64,000 nucleotides of DNA from the NCBI GenBank assembly GCA_963701855.1, contig CAVPBK010000011.1:192001-256000 (forward strand). The letters are read 5' to 3'. The stretch comes from Nitrospirota bacterium (GTDB lineage Bacteria > Nitrospirota > Nitrospiria > Nitrospirales > Nitrospiraceae). The notes under the pieces were generated by a model, which was not told the origin of the DNA, did not search any database, and saw nothing but the letters and a program-made list of their open reading frames with translations. Of the stretch, positions 760 to 47,311 are shown piece by piece. Position 1 is the first letter of the stretch; the number at the start of each line of letters is the position of its first letter. The position numbers and the translations under genes are program-made.

Positions 760-962
760 CTAGGAGTCTGCGGAAAAACTATTATGGTAAACATTTAATG
801 GTCCCCATATCTAGGACAACAGGATAACACCGTGCAGGATGCTCAAAAAGGCCGTTCAGCAAGGCCGCAGCGAGTGAAGGTCCGAGTCGTACCCTCTGTG
901 GTACGTTGAGGGTCTGAACGATGCGAGAACGACGCTGGCGGACTTTTTCAGCATCCTGCTAG
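760..962 (+). mobile_element. MITE-like element, family 1 (GTAC-hairpin core variant)
   Basis: CTAG at both ends (760-763, 959-962); outer TIR GAGTCTGCGGAAAAACT; 53-nt spacer; inner GCAGGATGCTCAAAAAG (834-850); terminal CTTTTTCAGCATCCTG. Homologous to copies at 23910, 27624 and 37953. Confidence 0.8.
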
Positions 963-23909: not shown

Positions 23910-24144
23910 TTAGCAGGTTGTTGACAAAGTCCGCCAGCACAAAGAAGGTTGAGGTTCAGGCTAAGGTTGAGAAAAAGAGAGTCTGATCTTCGCTAAACCT
24001 TGACCTTAATCTCAGCCTATATCAGAAGCTGCGGCCTTGCTGGACGGCCTTTCTGAACAGCCTGCGATGGCTTCTGAACAGGTCTGTGAGTATCCGCGCC
24101 TTCCGTTTCTTCCATGCTCAATTAGTTTGTCTACACCCTGTTAG
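23910..24144 (-). mobile_element. MITE-like element, family 1 (hexamer-hairpin core), copy A
   Basis: TTAG duplicated at both ends; TIRs CAGGTTGTTGACAAA and TTTGTCTACACCCTG; internal TIR TTTCTGAACAGCCTG; 23911-24065 differs from 27625-27779 at one base. Confidence 0.85.
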
Positions 24145-25346
24145 ACGACGCTGCTCTGATTGGTCGATGCCACTCGGAGCAAGAGATGAGCTAGGGCTCT
24201 AAACATCGTACCCTGCCCCCAATGAAGCATGGGCGTTTTCGCTTTCATGATTGGGTATTGCCGATAGTAAAAATAGCCCTTCCTGTCTTGCATATTACGG
24301 ATCGTCCAAGCCGCAACTCGTTTGGCCAATGCCAATGACGCTGGGTCGTCTTCTGAAACGAAGGCCAGTGTATCGATTGCTTGTCCCGCACATTGGATAT
24401 CGACCGGGTACGTTCGCGTATGGTAATACTTCGGCCTTCCGCTCTGCTCAAAGAAATTGGCCTTGTAAAAGGCGAGCCCTTTCTCGAAGTTCTGGCGATA
24501 CGAATCGTCGCCTGTCGCGTCGGCATAATGTTTTAGACCATCCAGATTATATCCAGTGTGGAAATTGTCGATCCAATGGTTCGCCGCATTCTCGGCGTAC
24601 CACCACGATCCATCCGGTCGCTGGCGCGAGCAAGTGTATTCCATCGCTCCGCGTGCAACACGCCTGCATTCCTGGCTGCCGGTATGTTTTGCCGTTCTCG
24701 CTAATATGCCGGCTCCTAGCATATTGGCATTGTGAATTGAGCTCTGAACATGAGCCAAATAGCTTATGCAGTCCCCCTTCTCGGTTTTTTCACGGGGTAA
24801 ATCGAGGATCCAGTTACATACGCTATCTGCAATACGCAAAAACCATTCGTTCCCCGTCACTTCGAACGCGTCGATGTATGCGTGGCCGATCAATGCTGTC
24901 CACACAATGATCGGATCGTCTTTTGTATATCGGCCTCCGCGCGAAACAAAATCAAAATGATTACTCCAACTATGATATTGGAACCGGGCTACCTTGTGCT
25001 TATCAAGCCATTCCAAGCAATCAATTGCTTTATCAAGATACTCCTGCTGTTTTGTGACTCGATAGCGCATCACATATCCTGAGGCCATATATCCCCGCCC
25101 TTTTGTGGAGTCTTTTGGCTTCACTCCAAATGCTGGGCGTAAATTCAGCGGGCACTGGCGGATCAATTGTTGAAGCAGCCGCTCTGCAAGGAGACCACCA
25201 CATGCAAGCGGACGAAACCAGGACGACAGTCCGTCGAACGGTTCATATCCACGGTACCCCTGCTGCTCGACCCATCCTTGCGCTCGAGCAAGGCTTTGCT
25301 GGATCTCCTGAGGAGTGATTGCATCCGAACCACTATCGTGGTTCAT
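24141..25346 (-). CDS. Conserved EPS-locus protein, probable (alpha/alpha)6 barrel
   Basis: 401-aa ORF in operon; repeated helical units with W/Y-rich loops (QRPDGSWWY, IDNFHTGY, MQDRKGYFYY). Confidence 0.7.
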   Translation of the reverse strand: MNHDSGSDAITPQEIQQSLARAQGWVEQQGYRGYEPFDGLSSWFRPLACGGLLAERLLQQLIRQCPLNLRPAFGVKPKDSTKGRGYMASGYVMRYRVTKQQEYLDKAIDCLEWLDKHKVARFQYHSWSNHFDFVSRGGRYTKDDPIIVWTALIGHAYIDAFEVTGNEWFLRIADSVCNWILDLPREKTEKGDCISYLAHVQSSIHNANMLGAGILARTAKHTGSQECRRVARGAMEYTCSRQRPDGSWWYAENAANHWIDNFHTGYNLDGLKHYADATGDDSYRQNFEKGLAFYKANFFEQSGRPKYYHTRTYPVDIQCAGQAIDTLAFVSEDDPASLALAKRVAAWTIRNMQDRKGYFYYRQYPIMKAKTPMLHWGQGTMFRALAHLLLRVASTNQSSVV

Positions 25347-27604
25347 GTGGTCCGATCTCCATTGTTTAGAAGGTCTGCGGCGCTCCTCACCAACTTCTCC
25401 CTCTCTTTACTCCACGCATGTTCCAGATATACCGCTTGTCCTCGATGTGTTATCTCAAGGGCCTCTTTCGGGTGCAATGCAACCCATGTGAGTTTCAGCG
25501 CAAGGTCATCCGCGGTTCCAAGTTCAAAGAATACCAGCGCATCATCGTTAAAGTAGTCTTCAATGCCTGGAGCGCGAGGTGCTACAACAGGTTTCCCCAA
25601 TGCCAGGTACTCGAAAATCCGAGTCGGCGTGTTGATTTCCGTGAAGATACTCCGCTTATTCGGGATGACGCCTACATCGCATTCCTCAATCGCCTGAACG
25701 AGCTCTTCCAGCCGTCTTGGCCCGAGATAATAGACTGCTTTCTCCAGGCCCTTCTCAGACACGGTCAGCATGACCTGATCCAAGAATGGTGTCCGAGGAC
25801 CATAAATCCTCAATTCTGCTGCAGGGACGGATTGGCGCACCTTTATTAGTGCCTCCACCGCTAAATCTACACCGTTCCGCTCTACTAACGTGCCGTGATA
25901 CATGATGACGAAGGGAGCATTCACCTCATCTGACTGCCTGTTCCTCAGTTGCGCTGGAGCATACTTGAATATTCGCTCGTCCGGTGAATTCATAATGACC
26001 GTGACTTTTGACGGTGAACAACTGCGTGACACAAACAGCTTTTCGCAAGCGCGGTTCACAGTCAACACCACATCGGCACAGGTGATGCTCCACTTCTCGA
26101 GACGGGCCATCAGCCTCACTGCCGGGCTCTCCCTCCGCAGATTGTAGATCGTCATCATGAGCTCCGGCATTGGATCGTGCAGATCCAATATCACCTTGGC
26201 ACCAAACAACTTGGGAACCAAGGCAGCGAGAACGAGAACATCCGGCATATTATGAATGTGCACGATATGGTACGGCCTTGTCAGGGAGCGAGCAGCAAGC
26301 TTCGCAAACGCGATCATGATAAACAGGCAATACCGAAGCATATAGTTCAGTTTAGAACCACGGTTATGCTTGAAAGCAATCCGGTCGATCTCAATTCCCT
26401 TGAATGTGTCCCGCTTTGGGCTTCCCTCATCAATAAGGCATATCACCTCGACGCTCATGCCGGCATGCACAAAGGTTTCTGCCGCCCTGCGTGGACGTGG
26501 GTCACCTGGGAAACTTGAAAACGAAACCACTGCCATGCGCTTTCCTTGCAAACAGGAAATCCCAGGACTCTGAGCCTCTGACCGATCTCCTGTCTGAAGA
26601 TCGGCTGGACTCTCGGAGAAGACATCCTGAGCCTTCGGATGAGACATTGCAGCCTTCTCTTGAGCGAGCGAACTTCTATTCACACCTGACCCAGGGACCA
26701 TATTCGTATAGAAATAGTGCGCGACGTCTTTTGGCAACGCACACCAACACTGATCAGCATAGCGATCGGCAACATATTCGAGCAGATCCCGATACAGCTG
26801 CTGACTGTACTCACCGAGACGCTTCTGGCCGTTGAAACCTATGTAGTCCGGATGGACAATTACCAATGCTAAGCCACCTTTTTGAGCTACCCAATCGAGC
26901 TTACGCTTCCATATGTCGATCGAGTCTTCTTTCAACAATATAAACAGAGTGGAATCTTGTGCCAGCGTATAGGGCATCTCGACATAACCGTGCTGTCCAT
27001 CTTGCGATACCCAGAACGGGAAAATCGTGTCTACCCCGTCAGGCTGAGGCTCAAATGGATCCGTGTCAAAGGTGGAACTGTCATAGAGAACGTTTACTTC
27101 ATCAAGCCATCTGAGATTATGCCGCATGAATCCTGAACGAAAACCTTCCGCACCCCATTGCTCTATGTACCGGTTTATCTTCTTCGCCCCACTCCTAAAG
27201 CTTCCCCAGGAACGATACAAACTTCCGTCATGATGTAGATCATGAACCCCTACTTCAAACCCGTGCGCCGTCAGAAATCCTCGCAGAGACTCCGGAACTC
27301 GATACTCCCCCTCCGGCACGAAGTTAAACGCGGAACGGAACCCGAGCTGAATTTCCAAGTCAGCCAATGCACGAGAACGATCCAATCCTTTCCTGGTTTC
27401 AACGTCGTGCGTGAGAACAAATGCGAACTGTTTACCTTCAGGCCAACCTGGCCACTTTGCCGGCACCTTGCACGCTGCCTCATTGATCGGCCAGGTATTG
27501 GTATGCCTCCGCCTCAGCCGGTTAGCCAGAATGCGCCGAAGCGCTAACCGAACCCTCAACGGAATGGCAGGCTTTGCCATATAATAGGCATCATTTAATA
27601 TCAT
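25343..27604 (-). CDS. Polysaccharide deacetylase-like domain fused to GT4 glycosyltransferase
   Basis: N-terminal LTHDVE, EVGVHD, YDSS, IVHPDY; C-terminal HIHNMPD, YHGTL, PTRIFEYLALGKPVV. Confidence 0.85.
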   Translation of the reverse strand: MILNDAYYMAKPAIPLRVRLALRRILANRLRRRHTNTWPINEAACKVPAKWPGWPEGKQFAFVLTHDVETRKGLDRSRALADLEIQLGFRSAFNFVPEGEYRVPESLRGFLTAHGFEVGVHDLHHDGSLYRSWGSFRSGAKKINRYIEQWGAEGFRSGFMRHNLRWLDEVNVLYDSSTFDTDPFEPQPDGVDTIFPFWVSQDGQHGYVEMPYTLAQDSTLFILLKEDSIDIWKRKLDWVAQKGGLALVIVHPDYIGFNGQKRLGEYSQQLYRDLLEYVADRYADQCWCALPKDVAHYFYTNMVPGSGVNRSSLAQEKAAMSHPKAQDVFSESPADLQTGDRSEAQSPGISCLQGKRMAVVSFSSFPGDPRPRRAAETFVHAGMSVEVICLIDEGSPKRDTFKGIEIDRIAFKHNRGSKLNYMLRYCLFIMIAFAKLAARSLTRPYHIVHIHNMPDVLVLAALVPKLFGAKVILDLHDPMPELMMTIYNLRRESPAVRLMARLEKWSITCADVVLTVNRACEKLFVSRSCSPSKVTVIMNSPDERIFKYAPAQLRNRQSDEVNAPFVIMYHGTLVERNGVDLAVEALIKVRQSVPAAELRIYGPRTPFLDQVMLTVSEKGLEKAVYYLGPRRLEELVQAIEECDVGVIPNKRSIFTEINTPTRIFEYLALGKPVVAPRAPGIEDYFNDDALVFFELGTADDLALKLTWVALHPKEALEITHRGQAVYLEHAWSKEREKLVRSAADLLNNGDRTT

Positions 27605-27623
27605 GAGAAATCCATGACTCCGG

Positions 27624-27859
27624 CTAGCAGGCTGTTGACAAAGTCCGCCAGCACAAAGAAGGTTGAGGTTCAGGCTAAGGTTGAGAAAAAGAGAGTCTGA
27701 TCTTCGCTAAACCTTGACCTTAATCTCAGCCTATATCAGAAGCTGCGGCCTTGCTGGACGGCCTTTCTGAACAGCCTGCAGGCCATTCAGTTTCCGTCAG
27801 TGGTCTCAGAGGTGGTATCGCTTCCGGTGTCGTCATCTAGTTTGTCAACAAACTGCTAG
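27624..27859 (-). mobile_element. MITE-like element, family 1 (hexamer-hairpin core), copy B
   Basis: CTAG duplicated at both ends; CAGGCTGTTGACAAA...TTTGTCAACAAACTG; internal TIR ends at 27779. Confidence 0.85.
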
Positions 27860-37952: not shown

Positions 37953-38189
37953 CTAACAGGATGCTGAAAAAGTCCGCCAGCGCAAAGAAGGTTGAGGTTC
38001 AGGCTCAGGTTGAGAAAAAGAGAGTCTGAATCTTCGCTAAACCTTGACCTTGAGCTCAGCCTATCTCGGAAGCTGCGGCCTTGCTGGACGGCCTTTTTGA
38101 GCATCCTGATGCTCTGTTGACATCGACGCCAATAGGGAAGGTTCCAATGGCACATTGTGTATACACTGAGTTTTTCCACAGCCTGCTAA
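37953..38189 (-). mobile_element. MITE-like element, family 1 (hexamer-hairpin core), copy C
   Basis: CTAA duplicated at both ends; CAGGATGCTGAAAAAG...inner CTTTTTGAGCATCCTG...outer TTTTTCCACAGCCTG. Confidence 0.85.
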
Positions 38190-38555: not shown

Positions 38556-38748
38556 AAGGTCAGTTGGAGGTTGGAGGGAGAAGCAGAAGGTTGAGGCTGA
38601 GGTTAAGGCTAAGCTTGAGGTCGAGCCGAAGAATCTCCCTACTCATCCTGAACCTCGACCTTAGCCTTCAGATCATCGGACTGGGAGAAGTAGAAGGCTG
38701 AGGTTGAGCAGCAAGGTGGGGGGAGAGGCTGAGAAATATCCGGCTCAT
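38556..38748. repeat. AGGYTR hexamer tandem-repeat hairpin
   Basis: AGGTTG AGGCTG AGGTTA AGGCTA AGCTTG AGGTCG followed by CCTGAA CCTCGA CCTTAG CCTT; ends in GAGAAATATCCGGCTCAT, shared with 47215-47232. Confidence 0.8.
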
Positions 38749-38821
38749 ATAGCGCGTCGATGATCGGCGCAATCTTCATGAAATTGGACCGCGCCCCTGC
38801 AATCAGATCAATCCGCTTCAT
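38749..38821 (-). pseudogene. wecB: UDP-GlcNAc 2-epimerase 5' remnant
   Basis: MKRIDLIAGARSNFMKIAPIIDAL matches the WecB N-terminal motif GARPNFMKIAP; it runs into the repeat after about 25 codons. Confidence 0.8.
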
Positions 38822-38883: not shown

Positions 38884-39032
38884 GGCGATGCGGAAGTCCG
38901 CCAACAGCGTTGGAAGGTTAAGGATGAGGTCAAGGCTGAGAAAAAAAAGAGCCTGTTCGGCGCTTAACCTTAACCTCAGCCTTCTCCAGGTGTTACGGCC
39001 GCACTGGACGGACTGTTTCAGCATCTCGCTAG
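38884..39032 (-). mobile_element. Degenerate family-1 MITE, copy D
   Basis: GATGCGGAAGTCCGCCA...hexamer hairpin...CTGGACGGACTGTTTCAGCATCTCGCTAG. Confidence 0.7.
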
Positions 39033-45808: not shown

Positions 45809-47053
45809 ATGCCCGTCTATCACTATAAAGGCTATCGGAACGACGGCGGAGCCGCGACCGGCATTATCGATGCCGAGAGCCCGAAGGTTGCGCGCGTAAA
45901 ATTGCGGAAAGTCGGCGTGTTTCCCACCGATATGGTGGAACAGGGCTCGGGCTCGACCACAGCCGGTTCGGCCACGGGCACTTCCAGCAAATCCGCTGCT
46001 GGAATTGGACGTTCCCCGGCTCTCAGCACAACGGATGTCGCAATGATGACCCGGCAGTTGGCGACCTTGCTGGTCGCAGGGCTGCCGCTGGTCGAAGCGC
46101 TCGGGGTGATGGTGGATCAAACTGAGAAGAAAGCCGTGAAGAGCCTCATGGCCGACATCCGCGAAGAAATCCGTGGAGGCGCGTCCTATAGTGCGGTGCT
46201 GGAGCGTTACCCTCGTGAATTCTCTCAGATTTATGTGCATATGGTGCGAGCCGGAGAAGCCAGCGGGGCCTTGGATCAGATTTTATTCCGACTTGCGGAA
46301 TTTCTGGAAAAACAGTTGGCGCTCAAACACAAAGTAACCAACGCCGTTCTCTATCCTGCTCTGATGTTAATCGTCGGCGTCTCGGTGCTGTTTTTCCTCA
46401 TGACCTTTGTTGTGCCCAAAATTACCGCCGTCTTTACGAGTATGAAGCAGGCCCTCCCCTGGCCCACCGTCGTGCTGATGAGCATCAGCCATTTCCTTGC
46501 CGACTATTGGGCAGTGATGCTCGGTGGGATTGGTCTGATCGTATGGGCGGCGCGCCGGGCAATGAAAACAGAATCAGGACAGCTCACGGCAGACCGATGG
46601 CTCCTCAAAGTTCCGCTCATGGGCGAGGTGGCCCGTATGGTCGCCATCTCGCGGCTCACGAGCACGCTCGCCACCATGCTGGCGAGTGGTGTGCAGTTGT
46701 TGGATGCCATGGATGTTGCCAAACGTGTGATGAACAATCGTGTATTGGAACATGCGGTCGAGGGGGCCAGACAGAATATACGGGAAGGCGAAACGATCGC
46801 CGAACCGCTGAAGCGCAGCGGAGAATTTCCCGCGCTGGTCACCCACATGATTGCGGTCGGCGAACGCAGCGGTGAAATGGAGGAAATGCTGCGTCGAATC
46901 GGACACATTTATGATGGAGAAGTAGACCGGGTCATTACACGATTCACATCGCTCCTTGAACCCATCATGATCTTGTTCATGGGTATCTTGGTGTTCTGTA
47001 TTGTGGTAGCTATTCTGTTGCCGATCTTTGAGATGGGACAGATGGTTCGATAG
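45809..47053 (+). CDS. gspF: T2SS inner-membrane platform GspF
   Basis: QLATLLVAGLPL, AGEASG.LD, YPA, VGERSG, EPIMI. Confidence 0.95.
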   Translation: MPVYHYKGYRNDGGAATGIIDAESPKVARVKLRKVGVFPTDMVEQGSGSTTAGSATGTSSKSAAGIGRSPALSTTDVAMMTRQLATLLVAGLPLVEALGVMVDQTEKKAVKSLMADIREEIRGGASYSAVLERYPREFSQIYVHMVRAGEASGALDQILFRLAEFLEKQLALKHKVTNAVLYPALMLIVGVSVLFFLMTFVVPKITAVFTSMKQALPWPTVVLMSISHFLADYWAVMLGGIGLIVWAARRAMKTESGQLTADRWLLKVPLMGEVARMVAISRLTSTLATMLASGVQLLDAMDVAKRVMNNRVLEHAVEGARQNIREGETIAEPLKRSGEFPALVTHMIAVGERSGEMEEMLRRIGHIYDGEVDRVITRFTSLLEPIMILFMGILVFCIVVAILLPIFEMGQMVR

Positions 47054-47268
47054 CAGGAGGCTGAAAAAGTCCGCCAGTTCGGGGAAAGCTGAGGTCAAGG
47101 CTGAGAAGAGAGGCTAAGGTTAAGGTTGAGGGGGGAAGGCTGGAAGTTAGAGGTTTGAGGGTGACGGTTGAAGCCTGAGAGCCAATGTAGAGGGTGCAGA
47201 ATTGAAGAGAGGCAGAGAAATATCCGGCTCATTGCTTCCGAGCTTGGCCTTAACCTCGGCCTCAACCT
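47051..47268. repeat. Half family-1 MITE plus hexamer repeat hairpin
   Basis: TAGCAGGAGGCTGAAAAAGTCCGCCAG at the gspF stop, then AGGTCA AGGCTG..AGGCTA AGGTTA AGGTTG and CCTTAA CCTCGG CCTCAA CCT. Confidence 0.75.
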
Positions 47269-47311
47269 ACCTCTGATCAGTGATGGGTGATGAGTCTATG
47301 GGAGGTGTTCG

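Follow-up and report, generated by a model that had tools for sequence, protein, structure and literature searches.

The 64,000-nt window analyzed here (the whole stretch from position 192,001 to 256,000 of contig CAVPBK010000011.1, from a Nitrospirota bacterium of the family Nitrospiraceae) contains four complete copies, designated A, B, C, and 1, of a short dispersed repeat. This repeat is read, with a probability of about three in four, as a noncoding MITE (a transposable element of the miniature inverted-repeat type) of Nitrospira in which a spacer that is inherited and fixed in length, and not captured as cargo, would lie beside an uncut decoy copy of the element's own end. The elements were noncoding, dispersed, and 195 to 235 nt in length, and about 200 copies of the MITE superfamily were present in this genome (4.30 Mb, 15 contigs, 55% G+C). 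Each complete copy contained three related repeats, namely, a left terminal repeat (L), an inner repeat (R) on the far side of a hairpin core, and an outer terminal repeat separated from R by a variable segment. No description of the three-repeat layout or of the family was found in searches of the literature on Nitrospira repeats, MITEs, and IS5.

All four window copies shared one layout (Table 1), which consisted of a 4-nt flank, a 25-nt L repeat, the core, R, about 60 nt of segment, a 16-nt outer repeat, and the same flank again. Direct reading of the window confirmed these copies and their layout, which had been reported in a preliminary description of this DNA, and each copy had its own 4-bp YTAR duplication (TTAG/TTAG in A, CTAG/CTAG in B, CTAA/CTAA in C, and CTAG/CTAG in copy 1). 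Because the two non-palindromic flanks were direct and not inverted, the flanks are duplications that lie outside the repeat. The segments measured 60, 61, 61, and 55 nt, compared to the 58, 59, 59, and 53 nt given earlier, and these values differed only in where the start of the outer repeat was drawn. Covariation of the outermost terminal inverted repeats was also borne out, with GACAAA in A and B and GAAAAA in C, and copy 1 likewise carried GAAAAA.

The mobile unit begins with L, closes with the outer repeat, and is enclosed by a YTAR duplication of 4 bp. These two repeats are its true ends, and the inner repeat is not an end. Across the genome, 716 sequences matched the 15-nt end motif (≤3 mismatches), compared to 10 in 0.50 Mb of shuffled sequence. 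YTAR preceded 191 of the 716 matches, and the most common 4-mers were CTAG (104), TTAG (42), and CTAA (32). Sorting of 440 matches by best alignment gave 236 inner-type, 184 L-type, and 20 ambiguous repeats. YTAR was found directly outside 95 of the 184 L ends, compared to 9 of the 236 inner ends. Other genomes were sampled through 121 loci that matched an exact 25-nt piece of the inner repeat, among the matches listed; in these loci, YTAR was found directly outside 2 of 103 inner repeats. The base at position 10 separated the true ends from the inner repeat both in this genome (G in 168/182 L and 51/55 outer repeats; C in 200/225 inner repeats) and in the other genomes (G in 42/43 L and 37/43 outer repeats; C in 42/43 inner repeats). 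The 4-nt flanks of L and the outer repeat were identical in 15 of 60 tailed copies in this genome (8.8 expected; 56 of 10,000 permutations as high) and in 22 of 39 copies elsewhere (11.7 expected; 0 of 10,000 permutations as high). For the non-palindromic flanks CTAA and TTAG in other genomes, six of eight pairs were identical and none of the eight was reverse complementary. Duplications thus bracket L to the outer repeat here and in other genomes, and the earlier proposal that the unit takes in the segment and the outer repeat was upheld.

The length of the spacer is fixed at about 74 to 78 nt across at least 20 sequence-unrelated segment families. In this genome, an outer-end motif (≥11 of 15 matches) occurred within 140 nt of 80 of the 236 inner ends and in 54 of 2,000 random windows. 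Outer ends were located 75 to 78 nt from the inner repeat in 59 of these 80 cases, and copies with insertions or deletions, which fell outside that range, were common (21/80). The distance from the inner repeat to the outer terminus was 77 nt in the alpha family of segments, 78 nt in the beta family, 76 nt in the A type, and 77 nt in the B type. At the 121 loci from other genomes, 103 inner repeats were in register and 53 had an outer repeat, of which 47 were positioned at 74 to 78 nt, most commonly at 76 nt (18 loci) or 77 nt (18 loci). These 53 tails formed 25 BLAST clusters, 20 of which had a representative of 74 to 78 nt, and the four shortest tails (41, 42, 49, and 58 nt) were all singletons. 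An alignment of 18 representatives contained few gaps and was conserved only in the first 21 to 25 nt and in the last few nucleotides before the inner repeat, with almost no conserved column in the middle ∼50 nt of the segment. Since copies with insertions or deletions are common here and the four shortest tails elsewhere are singletons, selection on spacer length seems to act when copies propagate. The explanation favored is that the transposition complex would need a set geometry, in which the inner repeat acts as an uncleaved second site.

The segment is an inherited module that falls into sequence families and is not cargo. Clustering of the 60 nt after 227 inner ends yielded an alpha family (58 members), a beta family (15 + 3 members), several pairs, and 145 unclustered sequences. 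The segment of copy 1 belonged to the alpha family, for which a profile search gave 75 hits, and that of copy C belonged to the beta family (z = 11.8). The inner repeat and segment of copy A had matches of 76 to 95% identity in at least eight other genomes of the genus, one of which (G159) included a compact A-like copy whose duplication was CTAA/CTAA and whose core was short and quite different; a further A-like copy was found in this genome at C9:407776-407984. The segment of copy B had a relative of 93% identity at C6:312165-312411, on a different core, and 16 relatives of 77 to 98% identity in 5 of 40 other genomes, with the length unchanged in all of them. No similarity was detected between segments of different families (alpha, beta, A type, and B type; z = 0.3 to 1.5), and the segments of A and B had no match in other host DNA of this genome or in phage or plasmid collections. 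A table of cores against segments was mosaic, and cores and segments combine freely; in 12 of the 75 alpha profile hits, the segment was joined directly to a different core without an inner repeat. A periodic GTTTGG/CCAGAC core adjoining an alpha segment without an inner repeat was observed at L169:3596-3725 and at 12 sites; the GTTTGG/CCAGAC copy after atpG begins exactly at the TAA stop codon and has lost its outer end.

Segments closely similar to those of A and B were also observed in other species-level genomes, at 95% identity in L165:1501-1680 (G159) for A and at 98% identity in G162:C8:58126-58209 for B. The atp genes were only 70 to 78% identical (the sole comparison, made with G159), and this difference suggests that the elements, or the insertion sequences that may move them, spread horizontally within the genus.

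Copies A and B are separate insertions. They lie around two polysaccharide genes, at a distance of 3.7 kb from each other and in one orientation, have different duplications (TTAG and CTAG), and carry segments that each have closer relatives elsewhere. Their L-core-R portions were identical at 154 of 155 positions (99.355% identity; next-best copy, 93%), after which the segments could not be aligned (global alignment, z = 0.8, 500 shuffles), as had been reported earlier. Of the explanations offered in the preliminary description, a gene-converted core beside an unconverted segment is preferred on the basis of this identity pattern. Gene conversion between two nearby, co-oriented copies, with the conserved L and R repeats as anchors, would be the simplest account, as it would make L-core-R identical and leave each copy its own segment.

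L pairs with the inner repeat to form the stem of a hairpin. Pairing was examined in a 41-row alignment (40 rows from other genomes plus copy 1), for which the terminal stem and apical hairpin were specified by hand. In this alignment, 82% of stem cells were paired, compared to 34 to 43% in slid controls, and changes on both sides were found in 13 of 32 pairs (0 of 500 shuffles reached that number). Position 9 switched from U-A to G-C in five rows. The position-10 pair was unpaired in 33 of 35 cells. The covarying pairs together with the unpaired position 10 indicate that pairing in the stem is maintained on both sides of a mismatch that is itself conserved. The CCAGCAAGGCCGCAGC block of the inner repeat had no partner in L and was invariant in the alignment, although the loci were selected using part of this block. 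Folding of 89 modules revealed no strand preference (−21.8 versus −21.3 kcal/mol on the two strands), and RNAalifold, run on the 41-row alignment, found only a 4-bp GGCC hairpin. No Rfam match reached the gathering score in the 64-kb window, and around copy A there was only a chance microRNA hit far below the threshold.

The preliminary description had suggested a nonautonomous element of an IS5-type DDE transposase with YTAR targets, and partners with the same 16-bp ends and duplications were found. The MITEs would be mobilized in trans by IS5-family elements of 1.3 to 1.4 kb with cognate ends. This genome contained one 1,375-bp element (C15:64760-66134) that carried CAGGCTGTTGACAAAC at each end, was flanked left and right by CTAG, and encoded DUF772 and DDE_Tnp_1 in a frame interrupted by an in-frame TGA after 263 aa, with 141 aa following the stop. 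Using the N-terminal part of its transposase as the query (E ≤ 1e−20), transposase matches were found in 30 of 151 family genomes. Clade 1 comprised elements of 1,353 to 1,378 bp with the same 16-bp terminus, CAGGCTGTTGACAAAC, at both ends, as in copies A and B; several relatives at 83 to 89% identity had an open 405-aa frame. Clade 2 (∼44% identity; 1,314 to 1,321 bp) had CAGGCTGCGGAAAAAC at both ends, which is also the outer-end sequence in copies C and 1, and its flanks were CTAA/CTAA, CTAG/CTAG (three elements), TTAG/TTAG, and CTAG/CTAA (one element), that is, identical YTAR in five of six. The termini of the two clades are the outer repeats of the two MITE lineages (A and B; C and 1), which accounts for the covariation of the outer repeats. 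Both clades contained the Pfam DUF772 and DDE_Tnp_1 domains; clade 2 passed the NCBI IS5-family model NF033581 (283 bits; cutoff, 140), and clade 1 scored below the cutoffs of both the IS1182 model (231 bits; cutoff, 270) and the IS5 model (133 bits; cutoff, 140). No clade-2 element was found in this genome with the clade-1 transposase as the sole query. As the only clade-1 copy is interrupted by a stop codon and a clade-2 element was not found, most MITE copies in this genome are probably immobile fossils. An unrelated IS5 copy on C3, with ends GGAAGGTCTGATTAATTC, was not involved.

A cognate transposase supplied in trans would cut at L and the outer repeat, and the G-to-C change at position 10 would protect the inner copy from cutting. 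The inner copy could serve either as an accessory site that is not cleaved or as L's structural partner, and only copies that keep its distance from the cleaved outer end would found families.

Fourteen of the 121 loci had different termini (for example, outer GGGAGTGTTGAATAAT, inner GGTCGGTTCAAAAAAG, and L GGGTCTGTTGAAAAAAG) and retained the inner block, the inner part of L, and a related core. In this sister family, the spacing was 68 to 69 nt in 11 of 12 copies and 66 nt in the other, the distance from L to R was 120 nt in 13 of 14 copies, and position 10 was C in the inner repeat (14/14) and G in L (14/14) and in the outer repeat (12/12). Arbitrary 5-bp duplications, such as AAGAT, ATTAT, TGGAT, and AAACT, bracketed the outer repeat to L in 10 of the 12 copies with an outer repeat, as judged by eye, and these duplications are the cleanest proof of the unit. 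The sister-family outer repeat had 84, 37, and 19 matches in three genomes. No transposase was found for the 5-bp-duplication family; the one candidate pair examined proved to be two MITEs around a glycosylase gene.

Since the same architecture is found with different termini in the sister family, the architecture is older than any single terminal sequence. Only the outermost 10 to 16 nt and the spacer differ between the YTAR and 5-bp families, and the G/C rule at position 10 is found in both. A further proposal, put forward tentatively, is that the compound end is a functional device and that a portable hairpin passenger of ∼100 nt (inner repeat, type I core, and inner L) may have changed its transposase. 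An unrelated second MITE, also abundant and ∼188 nt in length, with (C)TAGGAGCCTGYCCGACATTG as its ends, was observed at L169:2321-2508 (G000:C9:298820-299007), with copies at 83 to 94% identity listed in most of the 40 other genus genomes; the motif CTCAACGTA..CCAG..TACG is common to its core and to the three-repeat family's type I core.

Several observations weigh against the reading of these elements as MITEs with a fixed spacer and an uncut inner end copy. Identical flanks were kept in only 15 of the 60 tailed copies of this genome, and in one copy (C6:667558-667773), the end used is of the R type and the CTAA duplication matches. About half of the hairpin modules were without a recognizable outer repeat within 140 nt (50/103 in the other genomes), and 145 of the 227 segments here were unclustered. 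The spacings of the two families (76 to 77 and 68 to 69 nt) are 8 bp apart, and this difference does not amount to a full turn of the helix. Among the full-length insertion sequences sampled, no clear inner repeat was seen; if the repeat serves as an accessory site, it would do so in the MITEs only. The flanks of copy A had no match in the 40 genus genomes, and no empty orthologous site was found there; the atpG locus (L169), which was also checked for an empty site, was swamped by repeat matches, and its two copies are truncated. A terminator scan left the long hairpins unflagged because it allows loops of 3 to 8 nt only, and it reported only a small hairpin in the segment of B. The gene conversion proposed for A and B is read from the pattern only.

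Among the alternatives, an origin from the leaders of insertion sequences holds up best, although it is considered unlikely. According to this explanation, the outer repeat and segment would be the 5′ leader of an IS5-family element, and the inner repeat would derive from the region of its ribosome-binding site and start codon; recombination between a MITE and a resident insertion sequence's leader would give rise to new segment families, and the fixed length would be the leader length. Such an origin is consistent with the position of the transposase ATG, which was 75 to 86 nt from the terminus in all sampled insertion sequences, with leaders that were unrelated in sequence; the ATG in the MITE inner repeat is located ∼81 to 83 nt from the outer terminus. 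The outer repeat is an exact match to the insertion-sequence terminus, from which L departs at positions 5, 9, and 16, and AGGAG is kept just before the inner repeat in alpha segments. Compared by eye, the beginning of the inner repeat and the clade-2 region CAGGAGGGTCACAATG, at 72 to 87 nt, agreed in 12 of 16 positions, C10 among them. In the ATG register, 18 to 19 of 39 bases matched, a value reached by 0.2 to 0.5% of control windows, but this register test was picked after the data were seen. MITE lengths (76 to 77 nt) were tighter than leader lengths would predict (71 to 82 nt), the outer ends of A and B continue as ACAAACT, resembling the transposase-distal end of clade 1 and not the leader end, and a peptide readable in the inner repeat was not conserved in the sister family. 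The derivation of the segments from subterminal DNA of insertion sequences was rejected: BLAST of 49 MITEs against 14 insertion sequences returned seven hits, all within the first 24 to 48 nt, and local alignments of the four window segments, minus the terminal repeat, with the 28 ends of these 14 elements gave P values of 0.1 to 0.7.

A nested or composite origin, in which an L-core-R MITE inserted into or beside a second short element that supplied the segment and outer repeat and the two then moved together by way of L and the outer repeat, is quite improbable. A few two-repeat copies exist (YTAR at 9 of 236 inner ends, with one matching CTAA pair), modules assort freely, and the 12 alpha segments on a different core without an inner repeat could also be accommodated. 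However, YTAR was absent from the junction of inner repeat and segment in all four window copies and in the family consensus, and C10 is fixed in the inner repeat and never occurs in true ends. The same junction distance was found in at least 20 unrelated segment families and in the family with a different duplication, and a distance that is constant across unrelated families would not be the product of independent nestings.

The preliminary description had also offered a captured or swapped spacer- or guide-like cargo, and this idea of a programmable, fixed-length insert is now very improbable and largely refuted. The fixed length with free sequence and the unrelated segments beside the identical cores of A and B had suggested it. 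However, all the window segments are members of families whose numerous copies, in this and other genomes, are 77 to 98% identical, and these heritable families show ordinary decay, with no match to other host DNA, phages, or plasmids; a neighboring nuclease or recombinase was absent, and there was no Rfam family. Of the observations named earlier as speaking against the preliminary reading, alignment to ancestral families with ordinary decay was found, and a broad distribution of lengths was not.

Least credible of all are REPIN-like doublets moved by a RAYT (Y1) transposase with incidental IS5-like ends, because, although L-core-R forms a REPIN-like hairpin of ∼120 nt and the genome has four Y1_Tnp genes, none of the four had L or R repeats within 1.5 kb (3.3-kb loci), three are multicopy and encode 162 aa, as is typical of IS200-like elements, and the repeats studied here have target duplications and termini identical to those of DDE insertion sequences. 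The Y1 genes (G000:C5:11607-11969, C12:66015-66377, C1:189485-189847, and C11:87349-87693) comprised three 162-aa frames, likely IS200-like, and one 239-aa frame.

The exact 25-nt piece of the inner repeat occurred in at least 121 places in public genomes. The source titles among the 80 matches listed were nearly all Nitrospira, Nitrospiraceae, Nitrospirales, or Nitrospirota, with one Nitrospinota metagenome-assembled genome (MAG), and the matches listed included Nitrospira moscoviensis, Nitrospira defluvii, and Nitrospira lenta. Copies were present in all 40 of the other genus genomes sampled, with ∼100 to 400 candidate copies per genome.

YTAR-flanked ends closed an open frame of at least 100 codons in 74 of 191 cases, compared to 136 of 1,851 random YTAR sites. 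This enrichment at stop codons is probably merely the survival of nondisruptive YTAR insertions, as a rough estimate of the intergenic baseline was similar. The A5-stem-T5 hairpin would also serve as a two-way transcription terminator, and such a function may explain the tolerance of copies that land on stop codons. The right TTAG of copy A (24141-24144) contains the TAA stop codon of a minus-strand ORF (24141-25346).

Table 1. Positions of the complete element copies and their parts in the window, with the loci of the sister family
Feature	Position	Strand	Description
Copy A, whole element	23910..24144	+	GACAAA lineage with type II core and A-type segment; spans both TTAG duplications
Copy A, target-site duplications	23910-23913 and 24141-24144		TTAG and TTAG
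Copy A, L terminal repeat	23914..23938	+	True end, G at position 10
Copy A, hairpin core	23939..24027	+	AGGTTGAGG-type, type II
Copy A, inner repeat R	24028..24064	+	Inverted L with C10 plus conserved CCAGCAAGGCCGCAGC block; not a transposition end
Copy A, spacer segment	24065..24124	+	A-type family, 60 nt
Copy A, outer terminal repeat	24125..24140	+	True end; reverse complement is CAGGGTGTAGACAAAC
Copy B, whole element	27624..27859	+	Includes both CTAG duplications; L-core-R as in A, B-type segment
Copy B, target-site duplications	27624-27627 and 27856-27859		CTAG and CTAG
Copy B, L terminal repeat	27628..27652	+	
Copy B, inner repeat R	27742..27778	+	
Copy B, spacer segment	27779..27839	+	B-type family, 61 nt
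Copy B, outer terminal repeat	27840..27855	+	Reverse complement is CAGTTTGTTGACAAAC
Copy C, whole element	37953..38189	+	
Copy C, target-site duplications	37953-37956 and 38186-38189		CTAA and CTAA
Copy C, L terminal repeat	37957-37981		
Copy C, inner repeat R	38072-38108		
Copy C, spacer segment	38109-38169		Beta family, 61 nt
Copy C, outer terminal repeat	38170-38185		
Copy 1, whole element	760..962	-	
Copy 1, target-site duplications	760-763 and 959-962		CTAG and CTAG
Copy 1, outer terminal repeat	764-779		
Copy 1, spacer segment	780-834		Alpha family, 55 nt, shortened
Copy 1, inner repeat R	835-871		
Copy 1, core	872-933		Type I
Copy 1, L terminal repeat	934-958		
Sister-family loci	L010, L023, L037, L040, L044, L046, L068, L076, L078, L079, L088, L097, L117		Other Nitrospirales and one Nitrospinota MAG

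The window further contained relatives that were degenerate or truncated and had cores of the AGGTTGAGG type, at 2470-2650, 38560-38750, 38896-39030, and 47051-47270. The copy at 38896-39030 has an R-like end with CTAG directly after it, and the copy at 47051 has a good L end only.

MITEs derived from IS5-family insertion sequences resemble the Nitrospira elements in being noncoding, ∼200 nt in length, and high in copy number, in carrying the terminal inverted repeats of a co-occurring DDE element and YTAR duplications, and in often lying on stop codons. The Nitrospira element differs in having one compound end, which consists of a cleaved repeat, a spacer of fixed length and free sequence, and an uncleaved copy of the repeat, in direct orientation and with the diagnostic G-to-C change, that pairs with the opposite end. 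In the L1-L2-L3 sites of phage Mu and the ends of Tn7, a cleaved terminal site is accompanied by uncleaved recognition copies at a set distance, and the length of the spacer DNA counts more than its sequence. Unlike the Nitrospira MITEs, these are large autonomous elements with unrelated transposases; binding of the inner repeat by the Nitrospira transposase is putative, and the sampled full-length Nitrospira insertion sequences have no obvious inner copy. BIMEs and REP sequences of enterobacteria, BOX elements of pneumococcus, and Correia and ERIC elements are modular, recombining, hairpin-forming intergenic blocks with proposed roles in transcription termination or RNA stability, whereas the Nitrospira elements have DDE-type termini, target duplications, and autonomous partners.

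Nitrospira bacteria are the main nitrite oxidizers, and include complete ammonia oxidizers, in soils, waters, and wastewater plants, and these elements shape their intergenic regions and break their assemblies. The family offers a natural experiment in which cleaved and uncleaved copies of one recognition sequence differ at one diagnostic base and in which the spacer keeps its length, though not its sequence, across at least 20 lineages and two types of target duplication. It bears on the distinction between cleavage and binding sites in the ends of IS5-family elements and on the need of MITEs for a subterminal architecture. If the compound end is a functional device, the inner uncleavable repeat would be an accessory transposase-binding site or a structural lock needed for propagation. 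If the hairpin did change its transposase, it would be a selfish or domesticated module, perhaps a two-way terminator put onto stop codons, that outlives its transposases.

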